Shown: in pieces, positions 3,827 to 64,000 of the stretch
How the letters are laid out: the number at the start of each line of letters is the position of its first letter
How positions within the stretch are numbered: the stretch's first letter is position 1
Source: a virus
Lineage: Duplodnaviria; Heunggongvirae; Uroviricota; Caudoviricetes; Demerecviridae
Length of the DNA stretch: 64,000 nt
IMG/VR virus record: IMGVR_UViG_2974640449_000001
Location: 64,242 to 128,241 of that record
Direction: 5' to 3' (one strand)
The notes under the pieces: model-generated
Database searches by the model: none
What the model was told of the DNA's origin: nothing
Seen by the model: the letters and a program-made list of their open reading frames with translations, nothing else
Program-made: the position numbers and the translations under genes

Positions 3827-3857
3827 TATCTCATAAATTGAAAATGGAGATTAAATT

Positions 3858-5330: not shown

Positions 5331-5339
5331 GAGTTAGTT

Positions 5340-5884: not shown

Positions 5885-5916
5885 AGTTCCATAAAGTTGA
5901 GAAACGGAGATTAAAA

Positions 5917-6123
5917 ATGATTTTACCAGAAGATATTCAACCTAAAACCCACTATACCGTATACATCGCTAAAGTGCCTTTCGGTGAGTTTCAGAAAGGC
6001 GACCCTGTGTTTGTGTACAAAACAATCGAAGGTCTAGGTGATTTAAAGGTACACAAAGGCGTCCCTATTGATGGTGACAAAGTTCATTACTTCTTTGACC
6101 ATGAACTAGATTTGGAGCAGTAA
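5917..6123 (+). CDS. hypothetical protein
   Basis: Promoter and leader at 5856-5916; 68 aa. Confidence 0.5.
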   Translation: MILPEDIQPKTHYTVYIAKVPFGEFQKGDPVFVYKTIEGLGDLKVHKGVPIDGDKVHYFFDHELDLEQ

Positions 6124-6125
6124 TT

Positions 6126-6392
6126 ATGATAAGCATGAATAAAGAGCCTGTTGTAGCCACTGGTTTTGAAGCAGTCGTCTGTAAGACCTGGGAAGGCTGG
6201 GATATGGTTGACACATGTTATCTCTATTTTGAGCAGGTAGTATTAACTGCACCATATGCAACAATGCTAGGTGTTAAAGAGATACCTTTTGTTGAATTTG
6301 ATCTAAACAACATGGTTGTACACTTTTTCTTAACCGATGAAGAAAACGCTAAACCAATCACCAAGAAATTACAACTTAGCGTATTAGATTAA
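6126..6392 (+). CDS. hypothetical protein
   Basis: 88-aa ORF, translationally coupled. Confidence 0.5.
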   Translation: MISMNKEPVVATGFEAVVCKTWEGWDMVDTCYLYFEQVVLTAPYATMLGVKEIPFVEFDLNNMVVHFFLTDEENAKPITKKLQLSVLD

Positions 6393-6400
6393 AAATCTAA

Positions 6401-6429
6401 TTGCTAAACATCGAAAAATTTAATATAAT
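6401..6429 (+). promoter_or_regulatory. early promoter TTGCTA-17-TATAAT
   Basis: aaTTGCTAaacatcgaaaaatttaaTATAATattcccatagtttgaaaac. Confidence 0.6.
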
Positions 6430-6467
6430 ATTCCCATAGTTTGAAAACAAAGAAAGGAAAAATCAAT

Positions 6468-6743
6468 ATGACTGAACAAAAAGTAACTCTAAAACCTGTA
6501 GCTGGCGACGCTCTTCTAATCGGTAAATACCAGTCAGGTGTAGACCGTAAGGGTAAACCTGTGTTCCGTTCAATGCCAAAAGGCAAAGAACCTTCAACTA
6601 TCGTGGAAGCGGTGTTTGAAGATGGTCGTGTTCGCTCTAAAGAAGGCGATGTATTTGAAGTTCGCCTGAACAAACGCCCAACAGTCATTAAGACTAAGCA
6701 AGGTGAAAAAGCACTACCTGCTCAATGGATTACTGTAGCGTAA
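6468..6743 (+). CDS. hypothetical protein
   Basis: Promoter 6401-6429. Start moved to ATG 6468 behind RBS AAAGGAAA. Confidence 0.5.
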   Translation: MTEQKVTLKPVAGDALLIGKYQSGVDRKGKPVFRSMPKGKEPSTIVEAVFEDGRVRSKEGDVFEVRLNKRPTVIKTKQGEKALPAQWITVA

Positions 6744-6910
6744 TGGCTAAAGTGCTTGTTGATGAGTCCCTACTCTGGGACTTAATTCACTCAAATATAC
6801 TACTTATGCACCTAGAAAACGAAGGTGTAGATAACTGGAGTGGTTATTACCATCCAGAAGACATTGATGAACAAACTGATAAATTATTGAAGGAAATTAA
6901 GCATGGCTAA
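6725..6910 (+). CDS. hypothetical protein (61 aa)
   Basis: ORF only. Confidence 0.35.
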   Translation: MDYCSVMAKVLVDESLLWDLIHSNILLMHLENEGVDNWSGYYHPEDIDEQTDKLLKEIKHG

Positions 6911-7163
6911 ACAACTAACTTCTGCTCAAAAAGCTGCTCGTCGTACTCACAAAGTTGCACAAACAGCTAAGAACAAGGCTGCTAAACGTGCTCGTCACGC
7001 TAAGGCACACCCTAATGACGCTCAAGTAGCTAAGGGTAAGTTCACTGAGCGTAAAGCCCCTCGTGTGAAAGGTAACTTTCGTAAGGTAAATAAAGCTTAC
7101 CGTGATGAAGCAGGTCACGTATTACCTGCTCCTAGCTTTGCTCCCATTGCAAAAGCTAAGTAA
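6903..7163 (+). CDS. highly basic Lys/Ala-rich protein (histone H1-like, putative nucleic-acid binding)
   Basis: 86 aa, about 30% K/R/A. Confidence 0.5.
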   Translation: MAKQLTSAQKAARRTHKVAQTAKNKAAKRARHAKAHPNDAQVAKGKFTERKAPRVKGNFRKVNKAYRDEAGHVLPAPSFAPIAKAK

Positions 7164-7305
7164 ATGGTTAGCAGGCTAAAACCTGCTGCTCCACCTGGTA
7201 TACGATACATTCCGGCTAGCTGCTGGAGTGTATCCACAGCAGCTAACTTAAACAAGAAAATGCAGATAAGGTATAAAGCAGAAAGATTCTATGTGAGGTA
7301 TAGAA

Positions 7306-8247
7306 ATGAACAACTTCGTAGCAAAACATTGCCGAACGTTTAACAAGGCAACTGTCCAACGTGACAGAACTAAATATCATCGTCCTAGCTCTAAGAGCCT
7401 AATGGATGAGTGGTTTGAAGACGAAAATGACGGGTTCGAGCACCCAGGAATGGTCGAGCCAAAGGAGCTTGAGACTCCTTCTATAAGCGGTAGCGTTTAT
7501 AAAAGAAGTTTCACTAACAAACAGGAGATAACTATGGAGCAAACTATTGCCCTACAGCAAGAAATTCATAACAAGTTATATGGTAACGTAGACCCTGACT
7601 TACTAGAAGTAAGTCCAGTGAGCCATAACCACTTAAACTGGGTTTTTGACCTAGAAACATATGCGACTTGTCAGAATGCCATCGTACCTGAGCTTTCAGC
7701 CGTAGCGTTCGATATTCTTTCAGGCGAAGTTTTTCATGAAGCCACGTTCCATCTTGATGTAGACTCTCAAGTTGCTCTGGGGCGCGAAGTTTCAGCGTCT
7801 ACGCTATCATTTTGGCTAATGCAGTCAGAAGAAGCTCGTATGAAAATGTTGCTCGCCGACCCTGAACACTGTCGCAATAACGGCCTACCAATGCCACTGC
7901 AAATTAGTGGAGCTATGGCACAACTGAGCCATATGATTAAAATAGTGTCAAAGACCTGGGCAGAGCAAACCGGTCTCAGCAAGGAACCTCTAGTATGGGG
8001 TAACGGTATTACTTTTGATTTAGGTAAGACTATCTCGTTGTTCGAAACAGCTCAAGTTCCATTGCCTTGGCAATTCTGGGCAGAGCGCGATGCTCGCACA
8101 TTAATGGACTTAGCCCCAGGCATCAAGAAAGCGTTCGGTAAGGACTTCCGTGGTGTACCTCATTACGGTCTTGACGACTGTAAACACGAGCTGCGTTACT
8201 TATCAGCTACTTACATTAAAATCTGGGAAATGAGCAAAGAAAGTTAA
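7306..8247 (+). CDS. DnaQ-like 3'-5' exonuclease (DEDDh family)
   Basis: WVFDLETY exo I motif and HYGLDDCKHELRY exo III (H..D) motif. Confidence 0.6.
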   Translation: MNNFVAKHCRTFNKATVQRDRTKYHRPSSKSLMDEWFEDENDGFEHPGMVEPKELETPSISGSVYKRSFTNKQEITMEQTIALQQEIHNKLYGNVDPDLLEVSPVSHNHLNWVFDLETYATCQNAIVPELSAVAFDILSGEVFHEATFHLDVDSQVALGREVSASTLSFWLMQSEEARMKMLLADPEHCRNNGLPMPLQISGAMAQLSHMIKIVSKTWAEQTGLSKEPLVWGNGITFDLGKTISLFETAQVPLPWQFWAERDARTLMDLAPGIKKAFGKDFRGVPHYGLDDCKHELRYLSATYIKIWEMSKES

Positions 8248-8255
8248 AAACTTAA

Positions 8256-8284
8256 TTGCTCAAACACTAAAAACTTTATATAAT
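8256..8284 (+). promoter_or_regulatory. early promoter TTGCTC-17-TATAAT
   Basis: aaTTGCTCaaacactaaaaactttaTATAATatattcctaaattgagaaaac. Confidence 0.6.
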
Positions 8285-8322
8285 ATATTCCTAAATTGAG
8301 AAAACAGAAGAAGGAAAACAAA

Positions 8323-9127: not shown

Positions 9128-9156
9128 TTGCTAAGTGCTTTGAAACTTGATATAAT
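9128..9156 (+). promoter_or_regulatory. early promoter TTGCTA-17-TATAAT with leader
   Basis: cTTGCTAagtgctttgaaacttgaTATAATagttccataaattgataaggaattgaag. Confidence 0.6.
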
Positions 9157-9186
9157 AGTTCCATAAATTGATAAGGAATTGAAGAT

Positions 9187-9342
9187 ATGAAAAAACGTGG
9201 TAAAATTCAAAAGATTGCAATGTTCGCTCTTGGTTACGGCTCTAGTATCCCTATGGCGAGTAAGAAATCTGGTTTAGGTTTACGTCGTACTAAGACTCTA
9301 GCTAAACATATTGCTGAAAACGGTTTTCGTATTCGAGACTAA
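9187..9342 (+). CDS. small basic protein (51 aa); not in the supplied ORF track
   Basis: Promoter 9128-9156 plus leader; RBS GGAATTGAAG; sequence MKKRGKIQKIAMFALGYGSS... Confidence 0.35.
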   Translation: MKKRGKIQKIAMFALGYGSSIPMASKKSGLGLRRTKTLAKHIAENGFRIRD

Positions 9343-9347
9343 ATAAT

Positions 9348-9424
9348 TGCGAGAATGGAGAAATGGCGTCTTGCGAGGTTCATATCCTCGATAACGGGTG
9401 GTTCGAATCCACCGCTCGCATCCA
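9348..9424 (+). tRNA. tRNA-Met/Ile2 (anticodon CAT)
   Basis: Anticodon arm CGAGG-TTCATAT-CCTCG, T arm GGTGG-TTCGAAT-CCACC, 3' CCA encoded. D arm is irregular. Confidence 0.6.
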
Positions 9425-9430
9425 AATTAT

Positions 9431-9507
9431 GCGCGTGTAGCTCAGTTGGTTAGAGCATCTGACTTTTAATCAGGTGGTCGAAGGTTCGAGTCCTTCTACG
9501 CGCACCA
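9431..9507 (+). tRNA. tRNA-Lys (TTT)
   Basis: GCGCGTG acceptor, TAGCTCAGTTGGTTAGAGC D arm, loop CTTTTAA, T arm TTCGAGT, CCA. Confidence 0.8.
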
Positions 9508-9513
9508 TACAAT

Positions 9514-9590
9514 TCTCGGGCAGACCATCTGGTTGAGTCACTACCCTTTCAAGGTAGGATTAGCGGGTTCAATTCCCGTCCCGAGAACCA
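9514..9590 (+). tRNA. tRNA-Glu (TTC)
   Basis: Acceptor TCTCGGG/CCCGAGA, anticodon arm CTACC-CTTTCAA-GGTAG, T arm GCGGG-TTCAATT-CCCGT, CCA. Confidence 0.65.
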
Positions 9591-9596
9591 AATTAC

Positions 9597-9673
9597 GGGG
9601 AATTAGCTCTAATTGGGAGAGCATCTGCTTTGCACGCAGGGGGTTATCGGTTCGAATCCGTTATTCTCCACCA
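9597..9673 (+). tRNA. tRNA-Ala (TGC)
   Basis: GGGGAAT acceptor, loop TTTGCAC, TTCGAAT T loop, CCA. Confidence 0.8.
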
Positions 9674-9679
9674 AATTAT

Positions 9680-9756
9680 AGAGGCTTGGCTGAGTTGGTT
9701 ATAGCGACTCCTTCATGCGGAGTAAGACGGGGGTTCAAGTCCCTCAGCCTCTACCA
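9680..9756 (+). tRNA. tRNA-Met (CAT)
   Basis: Acceptor AGAGGCT/AGCCTCT, anticodon arm ACTCC-TTCATGC-GGAGT, TTCAAGT T loop, CCA. Confidence 0.7.
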
Positions 9757-9764
9757 AGAACAAT

Positions 9765-9854
9765 GGTTGAATGCGACGAATTGGTAAGTCAGCGGATTGT
9801 AAATCCGTAGTCACCGAAAGGGGCATCTAGGTTCAAGTCCTAGTTCAACCACCA
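9765..9854 (+). tRNA. tRNA-Tyr (GTA), type II
   Basis: GGTTGAA acceptor, loop TTGTAAA, long variable arm, T arm CTAGG-TTCAAGT-CCTAG, CCA. Confidence 0.75.
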
Positions 9855-9860
9855 AATTTT

Positions 9861-9936
9861 GGGGAATTAACTCAGTGGTTAGAGTGGCGTCCTGTTAAGT
9901 CGCTGGTCGGTGGTTCGAGTCCACCATTCCCCGCCA
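9861..9936 (+). tRNA. tRNA-Asn (GTT)
   Basis: GGGGAAT acceptor, loop CTGTTAA, T arm GGTGG-TTCGAGT-CCACC, CCA. Confidence 0.8.
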
Positions 9937-9943
9937 AATTAAT

Positions 9944-10021
9944 GCGACTGTGGTCTAGTGGTTTAGGATACCTCCCTGTCACGGAGTGTGGTCGTGGGTT
10001 CAAATCCCATCAGTCGCGCCA
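9944..10021 (+). tRNA. tRNA-Asp (GTC)
   Basis: GCGACTG acceptor, loop CCTGTCA, TTCAAAT T loop, CCA. Confidence 0.8.
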
Positions 10022-10027
10022 AATTAT

Positions 10028-10104
10028 CTCTCCTTAGCTCAGTCTGGTAGAGCGTCCCGTTTGGGGCGGGAAGGTCAAACGTTCGAATCGTTTAGGGGAG
10101 ACCA
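10028..10104 (+). tRNA. tRNA-Pro (TGG)
   Basis: TAGCTCAGTCTGGTAGAGC D arm, loop TTTGGGG, T arm AAACG-TTCGAAT-CGTTT, CCA. Confidence 0.75.
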
Positions 10105-10404
10105 AATGAAGAAACAGTATCCTTGCTCAAATGGATACTCACTGAGGGACGAGCAATCCCAATATGTGCGGGCTGTCTAGCATATGCAGCTTTCGGTTGA
10201 AGCCACATGTTTAGTAATGCGAACCCATTAGCTGAGGCTTGGGAGCTCGCCCCTTACTCGGTTAAGTCCAAGAACCGCTGTGGAATATGTAAAGTCGTGA
10301 TTCCTTCGGGATAGCGCCTTCGGAAGTTATCTTCTGACTGCTAGCAAGTCCATAGCTATAAACCGTGACGAAAGGCAGCTCACGGGGCAGTGCAAAAGAT
10401 AATT
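10105..10404 (+). ncRNA. candidate structured non-coding RNA inside the tRNA block (about 300 nt)
   Basis: No ORF and no cloverleaf. Multiple hairpins: AGTATCC...GGATACT, TTCG tetraloops (gcagctttcggttgaagc, ccttcgggatagcgccttcggaag). Flanked by tRNA-Pro and tRNA-Leu. Confidence 0.35.
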
Positions 10405-48593: not shown

Positions 48594-48877
48594 TGAAGAT
48601 TAAAGAACTATGGCAAGTAAAGTGTGTTAATGGCTGGACTTATGTAGGTGATTGGAGATATTGGGGTGACCCTGAAGGTATGATTCTAGTTACTTTTAGA
48701 CGTAGCCAGCTTCAAGAGCTTCTATCGTGTTTGACTAGACGTTGCAAAACAGACAACTTCAAATACCTATATGGTAGCAATCTAGTTAATATACGTAGCG
48801 AAGAACATAACTCTAACATCTACTGCCACGAAGCGTACATCCCATCTATTATTAAAACACTGGAGAATTTACGATGA
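48593..48877 (+). CDS. hypothetical protein (94 aa)
   Basis: ATGA coupling. Confidence 0.45.
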   Translation: MKIKELWQVKCVNGWTYVGDWRYWGDPEGMILVTFRRSQLQELLSCLTRRCKTDNFKYLYGSNLVNIRSEEHNSNIYCHEAYIPSIIKTLENLR

Positions 48878-49026
48878 AAAAGAAAATCATAGAGCTACTG
48901 GAGAGCATTATCAAAAATCAGTTGGAAATTATTAATAATCAGAAAAAGATTAAAGCAGCTATAGCGGATTTAAGCGTGGAAAGATACAGTCAGAAAAGAA
49001 ACGATTGTATGAGTGGTTGGGATTGA
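48874..49026 (+). CDS. small coiled peptide (50 aa), paralog of the minus-strand ORF 56558-56695
   Basis: MKKKIIELLESIIKNQLEIINNQKKI vs MKKIIELLQLVVNNQKLILENQRVI. Confidence 0.35.
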   Translation: MKKKIIELLESIIKNQLEIINNQKKIKAAIADLSVERYSQKRNDCMSGWD

Positions 49027-54872: not shown

Positions 54873-55224
54873 ATACCTAGGGGATACTTATACTATCCCC
54901 GAATCCACCTATAATTTTTGTAAACAAAGAAATCTAGTGCGCAAGCTTTTCAGTGATGCAATACCAACAAACCCAGACTATAGCGCGAAGCGCTATCATC
55001 TTCAAATAGTATCATATTACGAAGACTCTGATGACCTGCGCTGGTGTGTTATATACTCTCAAAATAAAAACTACTATAAGAGATTCACTGATACAGTACG
55101 ACATTTCAGTATCCCTAATCTAACTAAGAAACAATGTCAGTATCTAAAAACCAAGCTAGAGAAGCTACCTGATTTTAGACAAGCAATTACATTAGCCAAG
55201 GAGGAAATAAAAGTATTTTCATAA
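54862..55224 (+). CDS. hypothetical protein (120 aa)
   Basis: ORF; last + strand gene before the repeat region. Confidence 0.45.
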   Translation: MKFKYLGDTYTIPESTYNFCKQRNLVRKLFSDAIPTNPDYSAKRYHLQIVSYYEDSDDLRWCVIYSQNKNYYKRFTDTVRHFSIPNLTKKQCQYLKTKLEKLPDFRQAITLAKEEIKVFS

Positions 55225-55228
55225 AATT

Positions 55229-55258
55229 CTTGACAGTGAAACAAAAATCCCTTATAAT
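55229..55258 (+). promoter_or_regulatory. consensus promoter TTGACA-18-TATAAT with no downstream ORF
   Basis: tcTTGACAgtgaaacaaaaatcccTTATAATataactgtactctagag. Confidence 0.55.
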
Positions 55259-55264
55259 ATAACT

Positions 55265-55400
55265 GTACTCTAGAGATATTTCTAGCAGTGCGAGGCTCAG
55301 GACAACCTTTTCCAGTCTTGATACTGGGAGTGTGGGTGTCCTGGGTAAGATGCCTCGCAGCTGGGAAAGTTATGGGGGAGTATTAACTGAAGAAAACTGA
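55265..55400 (+). ncRNA. candidate small structured RNA transcribed from promoter 55229
   Basis: No ORF. Nested complementary segments GCGAGGC/GCCTCGC, CAGGACAAC/GTGTCCTG, CCAGTCTTGATACTGG. Confidence 0.35.
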
Positions 55401-55499
55401 TATTATAGATGAACAGAATACGCCCCGCATCCCTCTAGCTCTACTCTAGTATCAACTTATTTAATCCCTAGCTTCTTATGATGTTAGGGATTTTGTCAT

Positions 55500-56020
55500 T
55501 TTAGCACCTATAATATTATCTCTAGAATTTGCACCTATAATATTATCTCTAGAATTTGCACCTATGATTTGGCTTGTTATGATGCGAAGCATTGAGTCTA
55601 GCCATGATTCCCCATGTCAATTCTAAAGCATAGGAATTGCACCTAATTGTATAGGTTATTTCGATAATAGTAAAAGACGGATTGACACCGGTTCAAGGAG
55701 CGACCCCCGTAATTGTCAATTGGTTTTTTCAAAAATCTGCCCCAAACGCCCCAAAACTTTATTTTCCTCCATAAAACCCACCAAATAGCACCAAAATCTC
55801 CATATATCTCTAGAATTCGCACCTATCTCATATCCCTAGCACCTATCAATTTTGCACCTATCAATTTTGCACCTACCCCAATAGCGGCATGTTTTGTGCG
55901 CAGCACGAGTCTAGCCGCAAACCCCCATGTCAATTTTGCACCTATAGAATTTGCACCTATAGAATTTGCACCTACATGTATCACTTTTGCACCAATCGGA
56001 TTTGCACCCGCAGGCGCAGA
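55500..56020 (+). repeat. iteron-like array: about 13 copies of a TTTGCACCTAT(a/c) core, including 28-bp and 19-bp tandem units, plus two copies of a GAGTCTAGCC...CCCATGTCAATT block
   Basis: ttTGCACCTATaatattatctctagaa x2.5 at 55500-55575; GCACCTATcaatttt x2 at 55840-55880; tttGCACCTATagaa x2 then variants at 55925-56015. Confidence 0.75.
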
Positions 56021-56086
56021 GGATTAGAGATTACTAATAAAGTATGCCCTAAATTAGGGTTCACTACATTAGGGATTTCTAATAGA

Positions 56087-56170
56087 CGTCTGGATGGCTA
56101 TACGTCCAGATGGCTAGAAGTCTAGAAGTCCAGATGGCTATACGTCCAGATGGCTAGAAGTCCGTATGCC
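56087..56170 (+). repeat. tandem direct repeats (about 22-bp unit tacgtccagatggctagaagtc, 3 or more copies)
   Basis: cgtctggatggctatacgtccagatggctagaagtctagaagtccagatggctatacgtccagatggctagaagtccg. Confidence 0.7.
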
Positions 56171-56199
56171 ATACCGTATAAAATATGGCACGATTTTTG

Positions 56200-56320
56200 C
56201 TTATTAAAAAGTTATCCACAACTGTATATTTATACATGGCTCTAAAACGCTCTATACAGAGTTATCCACAACCTTATCCACCGCAAAACTACTGTATATT
56301 TATACAGTGCTTTTCAGGTA
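56200..56320 (+). promoter_or_regulatory. DnaA-box cluster (TTATCCACA x2, TTATCCACC) interleaved with CTGTATAtttATACAG palindromes; putative replication-origin element
   Basis: DnaA boxes at 56212-56220, 56262-56270 and 56274-56282; palindromes at 56222-56238 and 56291-56308. Confidence 0.55.
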
Positions 56321-56557
56321 GCAGATTATTCCGAATACCGTTTAAAGCTCTTGTAAGCCTCGCTAACAGCATCCTAGCGTTGTAGCAATACCCTAGCAAG
56401 GGGTAAGCCCTAAACAGCCCACACGTAGTACATGCAAGAACCATGCCAACCTGCCTGACGGGCGCGCCGAAATGATAACTATTCTCATTTGCCCGTATAC
56501 AGTACGCCATACGGTAAAAGGTCAAACAAAACGGCGTACCGTGACGCCGTAACAGTT

Positions 56558-56695
56558 TTAATTTTTTAGTCGCTCTACTACCCAATCGCAGCGGCGGTCT
56601 AACTTATCTAATTTTTCGTCAATAACTCGCTGATTCTCTAGTATCAGCTTTTGATTGTTAACGACTAGCTGCAACAGCTCTATAATCTTTTTCAT
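56558..56695 (-). CDS. small coiled peptide (45 aa), paralog of 48874-49026; not in ORF track
   Basis: ATGA-coupled to the upstream minus-strand gene; MKKIIELLQLVVNNQKLILENQRVIDEKLDKLDRRCDWVVERLKN. Confidence 0.3.
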   Translation of the reverse strand: MKKIIELLQLVVNNQKLILENQRVIDEKLDKLDRRCDWVVERLKN

Positions 56696-56916
56696 CGCGG
56701 CTCAAAATCTTTTACTATTTCTAGAAATTCACGGATAGTAATTCCATCGCATCGTATTTCTTCATCCGAGTGTTGAGTATGGCGTACTGTAAACTTGTCG
56801 TATTCTACTTGCTCAATTTCTGAGACTAGCACACCTTTATAGTATAAACCACGTTTTTTGTGTGGCTCATAAACTTGTTGCAAGAATGATACTAACATTT
56901 CACTAGGTCTTAACAT
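56692..56916 (-). CDS. hypothetical protein (74 aa)
   Basis: Minus-strand ORF in a translationally coupled chain. Confidence 0.45.
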   Translation of the reverse strand: MLRPSEMLVSFLQQVYEPHKKRGLYYKGVLVSEIEQVEYDKFTVRHTQHSDEEIRCDGITIREFLEIVKDFEPR

Positions 56917-57158
56917 TAGTCTATCCCCTGTTCACTGATAAACTCACCTATAGCAAACATGCGCTCGCTATCGTTCGGGTAAGCGTCTGAATCAGCCATT
57001 TCAACAATAATAGCTAAATTAGATAAGCCTTGTTTAGCGATTACTAAATCACGGAGCATGTTTTGAGTTACTACGTCTAGCGGATTATGTATCAAACGTG
57101 TATTGAGCATATGCTCAATACGTGCTAGTGCTTCCTGACTTTGTTTTATAGTAGCCAT
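56916..57158 (-). CDS. hypothetical acidic protein (80 aa)
   Basis: Coupled ATGA overlaps on both sides. Confidence 0.45.
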   Translation of the reverse strand: MATIKQSQEALARIEHMLNTRLIHNPLDVVTQNMLRDLVIAKQGLSNLAIIVEMADSDAYPNDSERMFAIGEFISEQGID

Positions 57159-57352
57159 TACCAGGTAGCCTCCAATTGATAAAGCTTCTCAATTACATCG
57201 AATTGCTCGCCTTGCTCATTTTGCCAAACTTGCCCAAATTCGGTGTTTTCTACGTGCTTCATTGCCATAGGTATTGTGTAATATTGCATTTCCCCCATAA
57301 ATGCAATATTACACATCCAGACTTGCCCTAGGGTTTCGACATGTACTTTCAT
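57158..57352 (-). CDS. hypothetical acidic protein (64 aa)
   Basis: Coupled. Confidence 0.4.
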   Translation of the reverse strand: MKVHVETLGQVWMCNIAFMGEMQYYTIPMAMKHVENTEFGQVWQNEQGEQFDVIEKLYQLEATW

Positions 57353-57520
57353 TTTTTAGCCTCCATTAGCTCGCCTAATGAGATTACTATAACCATTGCT
57401 AGAAATGCTCCAGTCATTTTTCAATCACCAAAATTTTGTTATAGTCCATACGTACAGTAAAAAACGGCTTGCCGTTTCTAACCGCCCACAATAGGGCGGT
57501 AGCGTAGTTGTCAAACTCCA

Positions 57521-57841
57521 TTAGACTTTTAACCAACCATTAACAAACGTTGCGCCTTCATAAATAGAACGCCATGTTAATAAATCAGCTCTAGCGTATT
57601 GAAAAAGCATACCGCCATTAGTTGCGCCCTTAGCAAAAGCAATGGCATATGTCAATACTTTTGCTTTTAAAATTTCTTCGACTGACTCAAACAAACTAAT
57701 ATGGGTTGTCAGGTCAAAATGATACTCTTTGTTTGACAAAAAGCATTGCGCCATTTCCATGCGCTTGCTGATAGAAGTGTCAGCATTCAATTGGTAAGCC
57801 GTGCTTACTACTGGAGTAGTTAGATATTGTTTGTATTCCAT
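57521..57841 (-). CDS. hypothetical protein (106 aa)
   Basis: Minus-strand ORF; RBS present. Confidence 0.45.
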   Translation of the reverse strand: MEYKQYLTTPVVSTAYQLNADTSISKRMEMAQCFLSNKEYHFDLTTHISLFESVEEILKAKVLTYAIAFAKGATNGGMLFQYARADLLTWRSIYEGATFVNGWLKV

Positions 57842-57900
57842 TTTGTTGCCCTCGCTTTCTAGCGGTAGTTAGTGGGGACTTTCGTCCCCCCGTTGATTAA

Positions 57901-58284
57901 TTAGTGCGCCATAATGCAATCAGGGTTTTCCCCGATTACCGTATATTCTTCAATCGCACGCTTACCAACACTTTCCCAAGATTGGTCATTTTTTGTTTTA
58001 TTAGCTACACCGTGTAGGTAATAGCCGTTACCAGTATCACGCTCTAATGAGAATGGTTTACCCATATCAAAAGCATTATTATAAAAGTGATGTTCCCAAG
58101 TACCTTCGACATCAAACCAGCGCCACATATAATGCTCGAACATAGCTTTCATTTTGTCTAGTGCTAGCTGACATTCAACCTCGCTGATAATATCAGCCTC
58201 AAAACCGTTGCGAATAATGGCAACGGCTTTATTCCAACCTAGTGAATCAATGGTATCAGACAAGACAAGAAAATCAATTTTCAT
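57901..58284 (-). CDS. hypothetical protein (127 aa)
   Basis: Start moved to the ATG at 58284 behind RBS GAGAGG (track start 58332). Confidence 0.45.
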   Translation of the reverse strand: MKIDFLVLSDTIDSLGWNKAVAIIRNGFEADIISEVECQLALDKMKAMFEHYMWRWFDVEGTWEHHFYNNAFDMGKPFSLERDTGNGYYLHGVANKTKNDQSWESVGKRAIEEYTVIGENPDCIMAH

Positions 58285-58392
58285 GGTAAAACCTCTCGCC
58301 AAAATCGGTGGCGGTATCCGTTTAGGCATCAATTGCCTAGGTCTTTATAATACTAAAACCTAGGCAGGATGTAAAGTGATTTAGCTCACATT

Positions 58393-58728
58393 TTACGATG
58401 TATAGTGAAAATCTACTTGGTCTATACCAATTTCACGCCATACCATAGAACTTGTTTCAAGTCCATAGTTATCTAGCATATCTGATAAATTGGCTAGTTC
58501 GTCTAGGTCGCAATAGCCCTCGATACCCATATCAGAGTTATAGAACATCATACCGTAGGCAGGATGAATCATAACGGCTAACTGAGAATCGTTATCAATA
58601 TACCATATGGTATTTTCAGGGTCTTCATTAAATGCGTTCCCGTCTTCCTTAGTAACAAGGATTATTGAGTCTAGACTCAATAGTGTTGGTGTTTCGGTAC
58701 AGTTAAAAGCCATTATTTCAATCTCCAA
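58393..58728 (-). CDS. hypothetical strongly acidic protein (111 aa)
   Basis: RBS TTGGAGATTGAAATAATG on the minus strand; D/E-rich. Confidence 0.45.
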   Translation of the reverse strand: MEIEIMAFNCTETPTLLSLDSIILVTKEDGNAFNEDPENTIWYIDNDSQLAVMIHPAYGMMFYNSDMGIEGYCDLDELANLSDMLDNYGLETSSMVWREIGIDQVDFHYTS

Positions 58729-59049
58729 TACGGGTAAAAACCTACCGCCATAGCGGTAATAAACATTACTGATTCAAACATACTATGCCTACCTTGTCAA
58801 ATAGTTTTTTCATGGTAGAAGCCGAGGCGATAAACTCGCCAGTGTCGATACTTACACACCACCAAATTACATCAAAGAAAATACGATACATTTTACCGCC
58901 TCCGTTGTTTGGGTAGGTCTATATTTACTCATATTCTAGCCCACTTGTCTAATAACATTTAGTTATATAAAACGATTCTGGCAACGCCAGGCGTTATAAG
59001 CGCTGTAAGCCATTCTGAGAGGTTCTAACAAAAAGCCTTACTTTAATAT

Positions 59050-59180
59050 GTCTAGGTTGTGGATAACCGCTCACAATGGATTCTAGGGGCAGGAAACGCC
59101 ATTCTATATCGGATAAGCTGTGATTTAGGGTAGATAACTTCCATTTTCCTGTTGATAAGTTGTGGATATACAGTAGATAA
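59050..59180 (+). promoter_or_regulatory. second DnaA-box cluster in inverted orientation (TGTGGATAA, TGTGGATAT, GATAAG variants)
   Basis: 59058-59066 TGTGGATAA is the reverse complement of TTATCCACA; 59161-59169 TGTGGATAT; ggataagctgtg at 59111. Confidence 0.5.
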
Positions 59181-59424
59181 CCAGTATTATTAGAGATTGC
59201 TAATGTGAATAAGTCTGTTGATAAAAAGTTGGCACGAAAATTTCCATAGAACAAAGTCAAATAAAAATTCGCTATATAATATAAACAAAAATTCTTTGAC
59301 AAATAAAAATCCTTCGTTCTAGTTCTATTCACAAAAGTGCATGAATATGCAGTTTTTAGGGCAAAAGTGCATAAACCATTTAGTAATGCAATGGTATGGC
59401 TAAGGGCTAAAATCGCTTAGAATC

Positions 59425-59470
59425 GCATACAGAGCGTTTTAAAGGTATGTATAAATATACAGTAGTTTTT
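59425..59470 (+). repeat. inverted copy (about 85% identity) of the 56216-56310 palindrome/DnaA element
   Basis: The reverse complement aaaactactgtatatttatacatacctttaaaacgctctgtatgc aligns with 56216-56258 and 56283-56308. Confidence 0.55.
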
Positions 59471-59749
59471 AAGTTGGCATGATTTTTGAGGGTATGACAA
59501 AGTTCACATTTTATATATACAAGTTTGACTTTTCATTCTAGCTATGGTAGACGCGCGCCCGTTTCCTTATATTTATAGGGCAAAAATACCTGATAGGCAA
59601 AACCTATCAATCTAGTGTTTTTTAAAGATTTAAACGATTAGACTAATTTTCTCAATTCGCTATTATATACCCATACCAACGAGACAGGGCAGCAACAAAA
59701 CCCTATCAAGTTGAGTATAGAAAGACTGAAAAGTTTTTCAAAAAAGTAG

Positions 59750-59778
59750 TTGACAAGCCAAACGGCTTTTGAGATACT
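59750..59778 (+). promoter_or_regulatory. promoter TTGACA-17-GATACT upstream of the pre-early-like genes
   Basis: gTTGACAagccaaacggcttttgaGATACTactaacg; followed at 59858-59890 by the perfect inverted repeat GTTAACCGA..TCGGTTAAC. Confidence 0.4.
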
Positions 59779-59942
59779 ACTAACGTTCCCAAGGGAACAC
59801 GCTCTTTAACAATTTGGAATATGTGATTTGACCCATTGCTTACTGGACTGTTTAACGAGTGTTAACCGTTAACCGATTCATAACGAGTCGGTTAACTGAG
59901 AAACACTCTCATTTAAACTAACCTATTAAGAGGAAAAATATC

Positions 59943-60386
59943 ATGGCTAAGAAATGGACAGAAGAATCAGCAGCAAAAGCGGCAGAACTTTACAATGCTA
60001 AACTAGAAGCAGACGGTAAAGAAGCAGCAGCGCACAACGATTTTCTAGATGAAATCGCTAAACACGAAGAAGTTCAAGCGGTATCAGGTAAAGCAGTGCG
60101 CTCAAAACTTACTGTTATGGGTATCTATCAGAAACCGGACGCAGTTGCAAGTGTTGCGAAAACTAATACAGTGCGAAAAGAGCATTATGTACGTGCTCTA
60201 GCTCATACGCTAGGCTTAGATGTTGATGATTTGGACAGCCTTAAAAACGCTAAAATGTCAGCCCTAGAAGCTGTTTCGACTGCAATCGGTATTACTGACG
60301 TTATGACAGCAAGTGCAAAAGACTACAAACCAGATTTAGAAAAGGTTTGTGAAGCATTCGAAAATGCTCGCGGTCTAGACATTTAA
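59943..60386 (+). CDS. hypothetical protein (147 aa), pre-early-type
   Basis: RBS GAGGAAAAATATCATG. Confidence 0.5.
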   Translation: MAKKWTEESAAKAAELYNAKLEADGKEAAAHNDFLDEIAKHEEVQAVSGKAVRSKLTVMGIYQKPDAVASVAKTNTVRKEHYVRALAHTLGLDVDDLDSLKNAKMSALEAVSTAIGITDVMTASAKDYKPDLEKVCEAFENARGLDI

Positions 60387-60399
60387 CCGTCTAATAAAT

Positions 60400-60480
60400 T
60401 GGGGTAGCAATACCCCAATTTACAGTGTAAATTGCTTATCAGTTTACACTGTAAATTAAACCCGTAAATGGAGATATAAT
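60400..60480 (+). promoter_or_regulatory. hairpin (GGGGTAGCAATACCCC) plus 13-bp inverted-repeat operator (TTTACAGTGTAAAT / ATTTACACTGTAAA) and GGAGAT RBS
   Basis: ggggtagcaataccccaaTTTACAGTGTAAATtgcttatcagTTTACACTGTAAATtaaacccgtaaatggagatataatcATG; a second copy is at 60868-60955. Confidence 0.55.
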
Positions 60481-60481
60481 C

Positions 60482-60853
60482 ATGTCACAACAAACTCAAA
60501 TCATTGCATTAGGTTCACTTCTAGAAGCAGGTAACGCAAAATCAGAGCTACAACAAAAAGTTGCTAAACTAATTAACGTGCGTTTTGGTTGGCGTAAAAA
60601 CGACCGTATTTCTAGCAATACGTTACAAGCTGTTATCAATTTGATTGAAACATACGGTGGCAAAAAGCTGTTTCTAGAAAGCGAGCTAGATTCATTAGTA
60701 TATGCTAATAAAGCGGCTAAACTGACAGTATTCAGCCTACTATGTGAGGCGTTAAAAATCACTGATGTAACAGAGCGTAAAAATATTATGTCTATTGTTA
60801 CTAGTGGCGGGGAGCGCGAATTTCCGGTTCAAGTTCTAAAAGCATTCTGTTAG
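60482..60853 (+). CDS. hypothetical protein (123 aa)
   Basis: RBS ATGGAGATATAATCATG. Confidence 0.5.
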   Translation: MSQQTQIIALGSLLEAGNAKSELQQKVAKLINVRFGWRKNDRISSNTLQAVINLIETYGGKKLFLESELDSLVYANKAAKLTVFSLLCEALKITDVTERKNIMSIVTSGGEREFPVQVLKAFC

Positions 60854-60867
60854 TCAGGTATAAATTA

Positions 60868-60955
60868 GGGTAGCAATACCCTAATTTACAGTGTAAATTT
60901 ACCCAAGTTTACACTGTAAATTTCAAACCAACCCCATAGTGGAGATATACACAAA
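60868..60955 (+). promoter_or_regulatory. second copy of the hairpin plus palindromic operator
   Basis: gggtagcaataccctaaTTTACAGTGTAAATttacccaagTTTACACTGTAAATttcaaaccaaccccatagtggagatatacacaaATG. Confidence 0.55.
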
Positions 60956-62610
60956 TGACTAAACAACTAGTAGAAAACAAAGCTCAAATCCTTAAACTTG
61001 CAAAAGGCGAAAACTTTTGGGGCAAACGCCTAGACTCAAAACGTCGTGAGGTTGCAATTTCAATCCGTGAAGCTCTTAAACTAGATATTCATTCTAGCGA
61101 TTTGGTTGATTTTCTGGACGATAACAAACCAGTTAAAAAGACGCAGCAAAAATCACACGCTCAACAGGCAAGTGCAGACATTGAGCCAACTTTTGCAGGT
61201 AGTTTGCAGGGGCGTGATTATGAAAATCTAGACGATGGTTTATATATCATCACGGCAGCGCAAAACAATACTAAACCACATCCAGTATTAAATACATTGC
61301 TCTCAATGGCTAAATCATTGGATGCTGAATTTGGTATCATGCCGATTAAATACACAACTACGTTGCAAGGCTTGGAGCGTAAAAAGCCTAGTTTTCACGC
61401 AGACGTTAAAAAGCATCTGCTAGATAATGTCGATACATGGTTGGGTGGCGAAGGTAACGTGCTACTTGCTAACAGTGCTCAAATTCTACCGACTGCAAAA
61501 CAACCTATCAATGCAGCCGAAAAGCTTAATACAGGCGAGTCAATGACTATCGTTGCATCGCCTCGACGCCAAACAAAAACCCTACCTCGCCAGAAAAACG
61601 GTGCGCATCGTTGGGTTTATACAACGTCCGTTTGTACTCTTAAACACTACACTGATAGTCGTGCAGGGGCAGAGGCAGAAGCTGAGCATTGTTTCGGTGG
61701 TATCTTGATTCAAGTCACTAACGGCATGGTAAATCACCGCCGCCTAGTAGCTGACGAAAACGGCGTTATTGTTGATAATGGTTCGGTGTACTTCCCTGAT
61801 GGTACAATCAAAGCTTACAACGATGTATTTGATAATCAGCCCGTTATTGTGCTAGGTGATTTACACTGCGAAAAAATGTGCGACGACTCATTTCAACGTG
61901 CTACAGATTGGGCATTCGCTAACAATCCTCGCCTAATTGTGGTACACGATGCGCTAGATTTTATGAGCCGTAACCATCATAACCGTGAAGATTGGACATT
62001 CTTGTATCAAATGCAAGACCGTGCAGTAATCGAAGATTTAACCGATGTTATCAATCACTTGAATGCGCTTGCTGACATTGCGCCAGTATTTATTGTTGAA
62101 TCAAATCATGATTTAGCCCTAGATTCTTGGCTACGTGATAATAAATTCGACGTACGCAAAGACCCGAAAAACGCCCGTACTTATCACGCTCTAATGCTTG
62201 CTTACATTGAAGCTATGGATAACGGCACTTTTGACGACCTAGCGAAAATGGATTTAGCGTTTGCAGCCCTAGCCGATAAGCTACCAGAACTAAACCCAAA
62301 TATTGAGTTTGGCAAGCTGGATAATCAAAAACTAGCTTATGGTTATGATATTTCAATGCACGGTCACGTTGGTACAGGTGGGGCGAGAGGTAGCGCAGTA
62401 TCATTTAAGAAAATGCGCATTAAAACAATTACAGCTCATACCCATTCACCTTTTGAAGATAACAACAATATTGTTGTCGGTGTAACTGGTTCGATGGAAA
62501 TGGGCTACAACAAAGGCGGTACAACTTGGGACAGAGCAAACGCTATTGTTTATCCTAACTCAACTTGTCAGCTTATCCCGATGTATCTAATCGGTGAACA
62601 ACAATACTAA
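60955..62610 (+). CDS. A1-like pre-early protein (551 aa) with metallophosphoesterase-type motifs
   Basis: VVLGDLHCE, VVHDALD, GHVGTGG, HTHSP; size and position (next to the dmp-like gene) match T5 A1 (556 aa), which is an inference. Confidence 0.5.
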   Translation: MTKQLVENKAQILKLAKGENFWGKRLDSKRREVAISIREALKLDIHSSDLVDFLDDNKPVKKTQQKSHAQQASADIEPTFAGSLQGRDYENLDDGLYIITAAQNNTKPHPVLNTLLSMAKSLDAEFGIMPIKYTTTLQGLERKKPSFHADVKKHLLDNVDTWLGGEGNVLLANSAQILPTAKQPINAAEKLNTGESMTIVASPRRQTKTLPRQKNGAHRWVYTTSVCTLKHYTDSRAGAEAEAEHCFGGILIQVTNGMVNHRRLVADENGVIVDNGSVYFPDGTIKAYNDVFDNQPVIVLGDLHCEKMCDDSFQRATDWAFANNPRLIVVHDALDFMSRNHHNREDWTFLYQMQDRAVIEDLTDVINHLNALADIAPVFIVESNHDLALDSWLRDNKFDVRKDPKNARTYHALMLAYIEAMDNGTFDDLAKMDLAFAALADKLPELNPNIEFGKLDNQKLAYGYDISMHGHVGTGGARGSAVSFKKMRIKTITAHTHSPFEDNNNIVVGVTGSMEMGYNKGGTTWDRANAIVYPNSTCQLIPMYLIGEQQY

Positions 62611-62676
62611 TTAGTGTTTTATTAATAGGCATTCTAGCGAGTGCCTATTGTTGAACCCACTAATGGAGATAGACAA

Positions 62677-63180
62677 ATGTCAATTGAAGCAGTATTAACT
62701 CAAAAAGCAGAAGCTAAACAAGAAGCCAAAAAACAAAAAGCTATCTATCAAGAAGCTAAACACAAGCACAGCATAGCAGCTAGTAAAGCGTTATTTACAG
62801 AAGCCGATAAAGAGCTAATAGCCGAGCAGGTTAACACGCTTAAAAGTTTTGGTACTACGCCTCTTATGTCATGGGGGGACTTATCAAAACATGGCAATAT
62901 TCTAAAATATCTCAAGCTGTTTGATATTGACAAGGACGTGAAATTATTTGCTACGTCTATCCTTTGTGACGACGACTTGAAAAAAGCTATTACTGAATAC
63001 GACACGGCAAAAGAAATTTACTGCAAAGCATTGCGTGAATTAATGTTGTCTAAAGCTACACTTCTAAATGCTTTGATTCAGAATAAATTGTTTGGTTTCT
63101 TACGTGTCAGTACCAAGAAGTTAGCAAAAGCGGCAGCAGATATGCGCAAGCATTCAGAACGCTACAACACACAATACTAA
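62677..63180 (+). CDS. hypothetical pre-early protein (167 aa)
   Basis: Hairpin AATAGGCA-ttctagcgag-TGCCTATT then RBS AATGGAGATAGACAAATG. Confidence 0.45.
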   Translation: MSIEAVLTQKAEAKQEAKKQKAIYQEAKHKHSIAASKALFTEADKELIAEQVNTLKSFGTTPLMSWGDLSKHGNILKYLKLFDIDKDVKLFATSILCDDDLKKAITEYDTAKEIYCKALRELMLSKATLLNALIQNKLFGFLRVSTKKLAKAAADMRKHSERYNTQY

Positions 63181-63260
63181 TCCTACGCCATACGGCTCGA
63201 CGGGCGCAAATGTGACGCCCGTCACACTTTACAAATTACCCAATTATGGAGATTAAACCA

Positions 63261-63899
63261 ATGACTAAAGCATATGTATTCGACCTAGACGGCACAACTA
63301 TCGACAGCTTTCACCGTGTTGCGCCATGCCTAGACAGCAACGGCAACCTAAACCTAGATAAGTATATCAAAGAGGCTTGCACACCTGAGAAAGTCGCAAA
63401 TGATACACTCTTACCACTTGCCGGATATATGCAGCAGCTTATTAAGGATGGTCAAATAGTAATCATTCTCACCGCCCGTTACATGCTTAATCATGATTAT
63501 GTTTACCTACGCAAGAATCAATTGAGAACGCCTATCATTTGCAGCCGTGACCAATTGAGCCGTGTATTTGGTGAAGGTAATGCAGCCCGTATCAGTGCAA
63601 TGTCAGATGCGCCATATAAGCGCCAGTGGTTCGAGCATTTATTTGCTAGTATGCCACACGTTACAGAGTGGTCATTCTTTGACGACCATGATGGTATATT
63701 AGAAATGGCTAATTCATTAAAAGGTGTTACAGCTACGGATGCTAAACTCATGAATGAGCTGTTACAAATGCAATGGGCTGATATTTACCGCCAAGGCGAA
63801 CAAGACACCGCCGAGTTGATTCAAGACCTAATTGCTGAATGTTCAACTCAAGATGTGATTTGCAAGCCTGAATGGATTGATGAGCTTTTAGCTCAATAA
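63261..63899 (+). CDS. dmp: HAD-family 5'-deoxyribonucleotidase-like protein (Dmp-like)
   Basis: MTKAYVFDLDGTTID HAD motif I; hairpin GACGGGCG..CGCCCGTC plus RBS TATGGAGATTAAACCAATG upstream. Confidence 0.55.
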   Translation: MTKAYVFDLDGTTIDSFHRVAPCLDSNGNLNLDKYIKEACTPEKVANDTLLPLAGYMQQLIKDGQIVIILTARYMLNHDYVYLRKNQLRTPIICSRDQLSRVFGEGNAARISAMSDAPYKRQWFEHLFASMPHVTEWSFFDDHDGILEMANSLKGVTATDAKLMNELLQMQWADIYRQGEQDTAELIQDLIAECSTQDVICKPEWIDELLAQ

Positions 63900-63925
63900 A
63901 TAAAGAAAAGCTGTACAAATAAGAA

Positions 63926-63950
63926 TGGCTCTCAATTGAGAGCCATTATC
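63926..63950 (+). terminator. hairpin terminator
   Basis: ATGGCTCTCAATTGAGAGCCAT followed by T-rich sequence. Confidence 0.5.
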
Positions 63951-64000
63951 ATCTAGGGGGCGGTAATGAGACTAGTTCTCATTTGCATATAGGGGTACAC

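Follow-up and report, generated by a model that had tools for sequence, protein, structure and literature searches.

A short block of small genes in the genome of a T5-like phage runs against the direction of its neighbours and is bracketed by inverted repeats, which raises the question of what this block encodes and what the repeats are for. In an earlier sequence-only reading, it was suggested to be a first-entry anti-defence module of mostly acidic proteins, and the repeats were thought to make inversion conceivable. The window, namely the whole stretch of 64,000 nucleotides that was analysed, was found to match record positions 64242-128241 of Vibrio phage Ceto (MG649966.1, Demerecviridae) at 100% identity and represents the right 64 kb of that genome. 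All annotated genes and tRNAs in the window are located on the + strand except gp205-gp215, and the GC skew is negative solely across 55-59 kb, in agreement with the claim that this is the only leftward-transcribed stretch in 64 kb. The flagged minus-strand segment lies wholly within the 8,301-bp terminal repeat of Ceto, the main landmarks of which are given below.

55504-56178, no strand: untranslated direct-repeat field, analogous to T5 Repeat Region 3 (injection-stop region, iss)
55700-64000, no strand: right copy of the direct terminal repeat, 8,301 bp, 0 mismatches against record positions 1-8301
59943-63899, + strand: the other putative pre-early operon, toward the terminus, with A2 (59943-60386), gp217, A1 (60955-62610), gp219 and dmp (63261-63899)

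The right terminal-repeat copy of Ceto corresponds to the left terminal repeat of T5 (the first-step-transfer DNA), with dmp adjoining the physical terminus. The gene order A2, A1, dmp toward the terminus is that of a T5-type first-step-transfer region, and the identities of the Ceto A2 and A1 products to the T5 proteins are 42% and 31%, respectively. The distance from the dmp stop to the record end is 101 bp in Ceto versus 124 bp in T5 and 102 bp in VF16, and the terminal repeats of T5 and of VF16, whose termini were predicted with PhageTerm according to the VF16 record, display the same geometry. This position-for-position match, with the cassette inside the terminal repeat between A2 and the injection-stop repeats, supports the pre-early, first-entry placement suggested before. 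Since the layout and the bracketing repeats mirror the T5 first-step-transfer region, pre-early status is regarded as well supported, and the segment would constitute, beside A2-A1-dmp, a second pre-early operon adjoining the injection-stop signal of this T5-like phage.

The minus-strand block, running from 58891 to 56558, is composed of nine real genes, which are listed in the order of transcription.

58766-58891, - strand: gp214, 41 aa, hydrophobic (GRAVY 0.62); core family, opens the operon
58393-58713, - strand: gp213, 106 aa, pI 4.05, net charge -18; core family, extreme acidity retained in relatives
57901-58284, - strand: gp212, 127 aa, pI 4.9; variable slot between gp211 and gp213
57521-57841, - strand: gp211, 106 aa, near neutral; most conserved among the larger core proteins
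57414-57521, - strand: gp210, 35 aa; core micro-protein under very strong purifying selection
57158-57352, - strand: gp209, 64 aa, pI 4.5; core family
56916-57158, - strand: gp208, 80 aa, pI 4.6; variable, Ceto and Quinn only
56692-56916, - strand: gp207, 74 aa, pI 5.6; found in pVp-1, VF16 and Gary, dN/dS 0.06-0.28
56558-56695, - strand: gp206, 45 aa, pI 9.0; variable member, diverged paralog of gp190 (48874-49026, + strand)

All seven ORFs recognised earlier were recovered in place, although one start had been misplaced and gp210 and gp214 had been overlooked; because these two are also real, the unit contains nine genes. The start of gp213 was reset from the TTG at 58728 to the ATG at 58713, which has a GGAG ribosome-binding site and agrees with homologs beginning MAFNC, and good ribosome-binding sites are present for most of the nine genes. 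The description of the block as a coupled chain holds for four overlapping junctions (TAATG three times and ATGA once), whereas the other four are gapped by about 50-110 nt. Conservation in related phages was evident for seven of the nine genes (gp207 and gp209-gp214), the orthologs of which in four relatives gave dN/dS values of 0-0.46 and an excess of third-position changes, indicative of purifying selection. No ortholog of gp206 was found in the four relatives fetched, and that of gp208 was found in phage Quinn only. The products gp209, gp210, gp211, gp213 and gp214 represent core families of the Vibrio T5-like phages, which occur in 57-61 Vibrio phage records, without exception within the terminal repeat, and were found in none but Vibrio phages; the remaining four families are variable and swapped between lineages, the gene content of the operon being mosaic among relatives. 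The amino-acid identity of gp210 to its pVp-1 and VF16 orthologs is 100%, all nucleotide changes being synonymous, and the constraint on the conserved core, notably on gp210 and gp211 (dN/dS 0.12 or below), looks more like that of an essential function than of a typical accessory gene. The proposed paralogy between gp206 and the + strand peptide at 48874-49026 was reproduced as the top non-self ORF match in the window, with 14/32 identities and a Smith-Waterman score of 64, above every one of 2000 shuffles (25 +/- 5, maximum 51). The annotated CDS "gp215", with in-frame stops in four relatives and a dN/dS of about 1, is judged from the sequence not to be a gene and to have been annotated over a non-coding DnaA-box block; altogether, three annotated CDSs are considered probably not genes.

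The cassette is flanked by eight DnaA or DnaA-like boxes in inverted orientation, some of them paired 3 bp apart, together with a common palindrome.

56205-56313, + strand: left inverted-repeat block, which aligns with its T5 counterpart IRD'-spacer-IRC'
59058-59224, - strand: cluster of five DnaA/DnaA-like boxes (59058, 59150, 59161, 59204 and 59216)
59428-59475, no strand: right inverted-repeat arm, holding the palindrome TGTATAAATATACA (59448-59461)

The flanking inverted repeat noticed earlier is significant, the arms 56209-56256 and 59428-59475 (48 nt, 81% complementary) being matched at 39/48 positions versus 29.6 +/- 0.8 (maximum 32) across 40 shuffles, and a second inverted pair is formed by 56285-56313 and 59441-59469 (29 nt, 90% complementary). 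The left block harbors + strand DnaA boxes at 56212, 56262 and 56274, with 3 bp between the latter two, as well as two copies of the palindrome TGTATATTTATACA, at 56223 and 56293, while the block at 59058-59224 is nearly invariant, non-coding and analogous to T5 Repeat Region 2. The same arrangement of boxes and palindromes was detected in pVp-1, VF16, Gary, Hades, two metagenome contigs and T5, and conservation is higher in the non-coding blocks than in the genes. Outside the left block, the untranslated field consists of 27-bp repeats at 55504-55565, which lie beyond the terminal repeat, 15-bp GCACCTAT repeats at 55805-56011 and 8/16-bp periodic repeats at 56083-56178; T5 Repeat Region 3 likewise extends past the terminal-repeat boundary (Davison 2020). 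An Rfam scan of 55000-60500 returned sub-threshold hits only.

Candidate transcription signals were recognised at both ends of the operon.

56531-56550, - strand: intrinsic-terminator-like hairpin followed by a T run, beginning 8 nt 3' of the gp206 stop
59714-59778, both strands: back-to-back promoter-like sites between A2 and the minus-strand operon

The hairpin is the probable end of the operon. The + strand promoter-like site, TTGACA-17-(TG)GATACT at 59750-59778, is invariant in five phages save for one spacer position and would serve the A2 operon, and a - strand candidate, TTGAAA-16-TATACT, is located at 59741-59714. A further promoter-like site that fits the consensus lies at 55230. No convincing sigma-70 promoter was found directly upstream of gp214. 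This negative result counts against the explanation favoured below, as do the positional nature of the correspondence with T5 and the essential-like constraint on the conserved core.

Three other explanations of the block deserve consideration. Genes bracketed by a significant inverted repeat might be invertible or recombination-prone, in the manner of a phase-variable or shufflon-like switch, and the unrelated opposite-direction ORFs that occupy the interval in the Types 2 and 3 T5-like lineages (Davison) fit with such behaviour. Nevertheless, the arms are of small size and match at only 81%, and no recombinase was found by Pfam among the nine cassette proteins and the adjacent non-coding ORF 58994-59332, with neither invertase nor integrase detected in the cassette; the neighbours, judged by annotation, are labelled A2, A1, dmp or hypothetical. 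Moreover, the orientation of the cassette relative to A2 is constant throughout, as seen in all 30 relatives listed, in four genomes that were fetched and in two contigs from metagenomes. Because the orientation is the same in every relative examined and no recombinase was detected in the cassette, inversion is not supported and appears exceedingly improbable; the repeats, which are known and conserved T5-like DnaA-box/palindrome elements, are best interpreted by analogy as cis elements instead of recombination sites, to which DnaA would bind. A closer association with these elements is implied if the core genes gp209, gp210, gp211, gp213 and gp214 formed the machinery for the pause and restart of DNA transfer, or for pre-early shut-off, along with A1/A2 and the DnaA-box elements. 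The confinement of the core to the terminal repeat in all of its Vibrio phage records, the very strong constraint on gp210 and gp211 and the direct adjacency of the genes to the cis elements point in this direction, yet T5 requires A1 and A2 only, its entire analogous operon being deletable, and the core families are restricted to Vibrio phages, in contrast to the cis elements, which T5 also possesses. Such a core role is considered rather unlikely.

The remaining explanation is that of an anti-defence module, in which the acidic products, gp213 foremost, would be DNA mimics inhibiting restriction-modification, BREX or similar systems from the moment of DNA entry. The acidity emphasised in the sequence-only reading is extreme in gp213, which falls in the 2nd percentile among the small ORFs of the window, and moderate in gp208, gp209 and gp212 (pI 4.5-4.9); the charge is close to neutral in gp207 and gp211, and gp206 is a basic protein. 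Several features of gp213 would suit a mimic: its net charge of -13 to -18 is kept in all five phages compared even though identity drops to 45%, its dN/dS of 0.25-0.46 is the highest in the operon, so that it evolves faster than the neighbouring genes, it is second in the order of transcription, and unrelated yet likewise acidic proteins fill the slots around it. Insensitivity to restriction has also been credited to first-step-transfer functions of T5 and BF23, although the gene responsible was never identified. On the other hand, a pI below 5 is shared by 23% of the small ORFs in the remainder of the window, and no cassette protein matched a known anti-defence family. No Pfam family, among which Ocr and ArdA are included, was reached at the curated threshold by the nine cassette proteins or ORF 58994-59332, NCBIfam and PADLOC gave sub-threshold noise only, the PHROGs matched by the cassette proteins are function-unknown families, and the gp211, gp212 and gp213 profiles met nothing meaningful among PDB sequences. 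An exhaustive profile search with gp213 yielded five real small clusters among 1.84 billion representatives, none of them annotated, and a match to a repetitive 1302-aa protein proved spurious. The predicted structure of gp213 (pLDDT 75) is alpha/beta and resembles none of the known DNA mimics, and that of gp211 is a helical bundle predicted with confidence, for which no specific fold match was obtained; neither of the two models matches a known anti-defence fold. A papain-like cysteine hydrolase was also contemplated for gp213 and dropped because the catalytic residues (a Cys-His-Asp/Asn triad) are not conserved. On balance, an anti-defence module of DNA mimics is unlikely, albeit slightly less so than the core role above. 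The further proposal that the gp213 family is a new kind of DNA mimic or another defence inhibitor, and the interval between the DnaA-box repeats a swap-in site for counter-defence genes, is about as unlikely as that core role. If it were correct, swap-in counter-defence genes would be expressed while the remaining genome is still outside the cell, and gp213 would provide a Vibrio counterpart to the T5 first-step-transfer restriction-insensitivity function. The gp213 family as such is small, conserved, very acidic, relatively fast-evolving and restricted to Vibrio T5-like phages.

The explanation favoured as a whole, which appears likely, is that of a T5-like second pre-early operon with accessory products, in which the repeats serve as cis elements. 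By analogy with T5, one of the only two phages (along with BF23) in which two-step DNA transfer was verified, we infer that the dmp end of the Ceto genome would enter the cell first and that transfer would pause at the repeat field around 55500-56300. Host RNA polymerase would then transcribe two divergent units from the injected DNA of roughly 7.7 kb, namely A2-A1-dmp and the nine-gene unit gp214 to gp206, transcription of the latter being terminated shortly ahead of the injection-stop repeats. Its products would be accessory host-takeover or counter-defence proteins, and the flanking repeats, with their paired DnaA boxes and CTGTATAAATATACAG palindrome, are the counterparts in Vibrio phages of T5 IRC-spacer-IRD and IRD'-spacer-IRC'. 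What the sequence itself demonstrates is the position of the unit, the reality of its genes, their conservation and the homology of the cis elements.

This layout is already known from T5, and the Ceto cassette is not a new kind of system. Its value lies in the comparison, in which the T5 DnaA-box/palindrome elements were kept almost to the letter in a distant, Vibrio-infecting subfamily, while A1 and A2 have diverged to 31-42% identity and the bracketed genes were wholly replaced. The retention of the elements amid such drift and replacement therefore furnishes independent comparative support for the repeats as functional cis elements of two-step injection. In addition, five conserved orphan proteins are named as targets, among them an extremely acidic protein and a peptide of 35 residues.

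Among the known systems, Ocr (T7 gp0.3) and ArdA resemble the cassette in being small, very acidic (an acidity found in gp213) and encoded on first-entering DNA, but the cassette proteins show no sequence or profile similarity to them, nor do the gp213 and gp211 models in fold, and the alpha/beta model of gp213 differs from the Ocr fold, which is all-helical. The T5 011-017 operon resembles the block in arrangement. Both operons lie within a long terminal repeat, are divergent from A2-A1-dmp and run toward iss, encode mostly small proteins of largely unknown function, vary strongly in gene content between relatives and stop shortly before an untranslated repeat field that overruns the repeat boundary. 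In T5 and BF23, as in Ceto, the second transcription unit has a variable content, is read from the other strand and is placed between two repeat regions. The essential genes of the T5 pre-early region are A1 and A2 only; under laboratory conditions T5 can do without genes 011-017, three of which have toxic effects on the host. T5.015, an Ung-dependent nickase, exemplifies a pre-early accessory function that takes over a host enzyme, and the Ceto cassette occupies the analogous operon position, although a homolog of T5.015 is absent.

No gene families are in common: when all cassette proteins were compared by tblastn with the left terminal repeat of T5, 0 hits were obtained, and the PHROG families of T5.011-017 all differ from those of the Ceto proteins. 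An apparent link of T5.012 to Hades gp6 and Ceto gp212 (BLASTP, E about 1e-3 in a tiny database) was discarded at an hhalign probability of 5.9%. As neither a common PHROG family nor a supported similarity connects the two sets of proteins, the correspondence of the operons is positional only. Ceto has nine genes of 35-127 aa and a terminal repeat of 8.3 kb, whereas T5 has seven genes, one of 336 aa, and a repeat of 10.2 kb.

Inverted repeats with DnaA boxes were first reported in T5 in 1987 and subsequently confirmed by the T5 genome sequence, and 25 T5-like phages, a set that includes no Vibrio phages, were found to carry eight boxes, with 3 bp between the members of a pair, and to have a variable coding region on the opposite strand in the interval that the repeats enclose (Davison 2020). 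A role in the injection stop was proposed for T5 IRC-spacer-IRD and IRD'-spacer-IRC'. The Ceto A2-side palindrome (59448) is separated by about 230-390 bp from the DnaA cluster (59058-59224), in contrast to the single 131-bp unit of T5, and the palindrome is present twice in the iss-side block of Ceto, unlike in T5. Nonetheless, Ceto possesses the identical CTGTATAAATATACAG palindrome core and the same TGTGGATAACTT motif, likewise eight boxes in total with pairs 3 bp apart, about 50 bp between box groups, and elements oppositely oriented at the two ends of the cassette.

By megablast, 55000-60500 was found to be 100% identical to Vibrio phage Ceto (MG649966.1; Demerecviridae, Ermolyevavirinae, Cetovirus), and the window corresponds to positions 64242-128241 of that record, the right half of the genome, which reaches the physical end. 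The Ceto record carries direct terminal repeats, and window 55700-64000 matches record positions 1-8301 with zero mismatches; therefore, the flagged minus-strand segment lies inside the terminal repeat. The observation of a minus-strand cassette with inverted repeats, made in the sequence-only reading, is real. Its claim that this is the sole leftward-transcribed stretch in 64 kb was borne out by the annotation, in which only gp205-gp215 occupy the minus strand and all remaining CDSs and tRNAs the plus strand, and by a negative GC skew confined to 55-59 kb.

The layout is the mirror image of that recorded for coliphage T5.

Features of the T5 record (NC_005859)
Left terminal repeat: dmp, A1 and A2, transcribed toward the terminus
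5938-6489: divergent promoters
Beyond the divergent promoters, opposite strand: T5.011-T5.017
9140-10149: "injection stop signal (iss)"
10219: end of the terminal repeat

The Ceto cassette sits where T5 has T5.011-017, and the repeat field 55500-56320 where it has the iss, exceeding the terminal-repeat boundary by ~200 bp, just as Repeat Region 3 of T5 overruns its own. The dmp stop is 101 bp from the right terminus in Ceto, 124 bp from the terminus in T5 and 102 bp in VF16; the VF16 record gives its termini as PhageTerm predictions. The Ceto A1 and A2 proteins are 31% and 42% identical to those of T5; no genes common to the Ceto cassette and T5 were detectable. Judged from this position-by-position parallel, the segment appears to be a T5-type first-step-transfer region, and the pre-early placement proposed earlier is well supported.

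All seven ORFs of the sequence-only reading were recovered, but two genes, gp210 (35 aa) and gp214 (41 aa), had been overlooked. For the first of the seven, gp213, a better start is the ATG at 58713, which is preceded by a GGAG ribosome-binding site; its homologs open with MAFNC. Both overlooked genes are kept in four other phages (dN/dS 0-0.23), and changes are enriched at third codon positions in gp207, gp209, gp210, gp211, gp212, gp213 and gp214, whose dN/dS is 0-0.46. The constraint on gp210 (57414-57521, minus strand) seems unusually strong for so small a phage ORF, its 35 residues being 100% identical in pVp-1 and VF16 with synonymous changes only (4 and 7). The supposed ATGA/TGATG-coupled chain holds for four overlapping junctions (TAATG three times, ATGA once), but the other four are separated by ~50-110 nt. 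A terminator-like hairpin with a T run (56550-56531) starts 8 nt 3' of the gp206 stop, and the predicted transcription unit comprises nine genes, gp214 to gp206 (58891 to 56558). A promoter-like site, TTTACA-17-TATTAT (58347-58375, minus strand), lies upstream of gp212, and a terminator-like hairpin (58742-58759, minus strand) follows gp214; therefore, the operon may be internally punctuated rather than one simple transcript. Three annotated CDSs are doubtful.

Annotated CDSs that are probably no genes
55713-56027, plus strand: gp204, translated 15-bp GCACCTAT repeats
56289-56444, minus strand: gp205, without codon-position bias
58994-59332, minus strand: gp215, overlying the DnaA-box cluster

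In each of four relatives, gp215 is interrupted by two in-frame stops, and its dN/dS is ~0.7-1.15; yet at the nucleotide level it is 84-89% identical, as much as or more than most of the genes around it when phages of equal divergence are compared, which points to conserved non-coding DNA.

The inverted arms, 56209-56256 and 59428-59475, are 48 nt long and 81% complementary, forming the top inverted pair of the 6-kb region; their 39/48 matches compare with 29.6 +/- 0.8 (maximum 32) in shuffles, so that the flanking repeats are genuine. The three perfect TTATCCACA boxes in the 64 kb all fall in the cassette-flanking region, and eight DnaA boxes are found with one mismatch allowed, several of them paired with 2-3 bp between.

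Repeat-associated elements in the window
56212, 56262 and 56274, plus strand: DnaA boxes (one mismatch allowed)
59058, 59150, 59161, 59204 and 59216, minus strand: DnaA boxes (one mismatch allowed)
56223, 56293 and 59448: palindrome TGTATAWWTATACA

This arrangement recurs in pVp-1, VF16, Gary and T5, whereas Hades has the inverted DnaA boxes with the palindrome on the A2 side only; two metagenome contigs also carry it, one of which stops short of the expected iss-side palindrome position. Direct alignment of the Ceto iss-side block with T5 IRD'-spacer-IRC' revealed a common CTGTATAAATATACAGTAG, a DnaA pair and a terminal TGTGGATAACTT. Across five Vibrio phages of four genera, the DnaA cluster, the palindrome block and the A2 promoter (TTGACA-17-TGAGATACT) are nearly invariant and more conserved than the genes they flank. 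VF16 has a ~330 bp insertion upstream of A2 (7491-7826 of its sequence); within it are VF16_005, a short annotated CDS, and a duplicate of the conserved promoter block of A2.

A series of about twelve 8-bp units (TAGAAGTC / CAGATGGC / TATACGTC) borders the left inverted-repeat block on its outer side (56083-56178), where the T5 analogy would put the transfer stop point. The 64 kb contain a single sigma-70 promoter of perfect consensus (TTGACA-17-TATAAT, 55230-55258, plus strand), which lies just after gp203, ~440 bp outside the terminal repeat, is directed at the iss-like repeats in antisense to the cassette and is kept in pVp-1 (position 3667); speculatively, it might interfere with pre-early transcription after the remaining genome has entered.

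The suggestion that the repeats allow the segment to invert found no support. The cassette-to-A2 interval is collinear, in a single place and on one strand, in 30 of the 30 listed relatives, the cassette diverges from A2 in all four genomes fetched and in two independent contigs from metagenomes, and no recombinase domain was detected in the cassette proteins or the adjacent ORF 58994-59332. What varies is gene content. The gp209, gp210, gp211, gp213 and gp214 families occur in all five phages compared, gp207 in four and gp212 in two, besides a weakly linked protein of Hades; no gp206 ortholog was found in the four fetched relatives, gp208 is common only to Ceto and phage Quinn, and other phages have unrelated genes in the variable slots. 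Two contigs from uncultured relatives (L011 3455-6924, with an extra 262-aa gene, and L009 5814-8327) share the A2 / DnaA-box / cassette / inverted DnaA-box layout but differ in cassette content, which confirms that the interval between the DnaA-box repeats is a gene-swap site.

The description of the proteins as mostly acidic was only partly upheld. gp213 is an outlier (pI 4.05, net charge -18 over 106 residues, 2nd percentile among the window's small ORFs) and gp208, gp209 and gp212 have pI values of 4.5-4.9, but gp207 and gp211 are near neutral and gp206 and gp210 slightly basic; since a pI below 5 is also seen in ~23% of the window's other small ORFs, the enrichment is mild. In 5/5 phages, however, the net charge of the gp213 family stays between -13 and -18, at identities down to 45%. 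The proposed paralogy of gp206 with the plus-strand peptide gp190 (48874-49026) was substantiated by 14/32 common N-terminal residues and a Smith-Waterman score of 64 versus 25 +/- 5 in 2000 shuffles, gp190 being its top non-self match among all window ORFs.

Homologs of gp211 and gp213 occur in 57 and 61 phage records, every one from Vibrio, and large protein databases added just a handful of further clusters. For each cassette protein, the sole match is a PHROG family of unknown function; no match reached threshold in Pfam, NCBIfam or PADLOC, and PDB sequence searches with gp211, gp212 and gp213 gave no meaningful one. The gp211 model is a confident helical bundle (pLDDT 87.6, pTM 0.80) with generic matches only, and Ocr, ArdA, Ugi and other known DNA mimics were absent from the hits. 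The DNA-mimic role suggested in the sequence-only reading is a hypothetical one. The best candidate for a direct inhibitor is gp213, on account of its acidity, its comparatively fast evolution and its place near the start of the operon; for a conserved core role, the candidates are gp210 and gp211.

Given the homology of the region to T5 as a whole, Ceto DNA transfer may be proposed to run as follows: the dmp end would enter the cell first, transfer would halt at the repeat field, both divergent operons would be expressed by host RNA polymerase from the injected ~7.7 kb, and the nine small proteins would act during the pause. Every one of T5 genes 011-017 is dispensable in the laboratory, 011, 013 and 015 are toxic to E. 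coli, 015 nicks DNA by hijacking Ung, and the authors of that work suggested that some may be of consequence only where the host has defence systems. On this analogy, the genes of the Ceto cassette may be read as accessory ones for host takeover or counter-defence.

The same two "inversely oriented transcriptional units" were described in the first-step-transfer region of BF23. In T5 and 24 relatives, Davison (bioRxiv 10.1101/866236) found that the divergent promoter region holds IRC-spacer-IRD, the inverted form of IRD'-spacer-IRC' in the iss, the two together comprising eight boxes, DnaA or near-DnaA, that are paired at a spacing of 3 bp, with a highly variable coding region on the opposite strand between them. 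The Ceto inverted repeats are thus a known, conserved cis element of T5-like phages. That data set was without Vibrio phages, so the Ceto elements extend a known pattern rather than establish a new one, and the main added value is that the DnaA-box/palindrome elements are deeply conserved across host genera.
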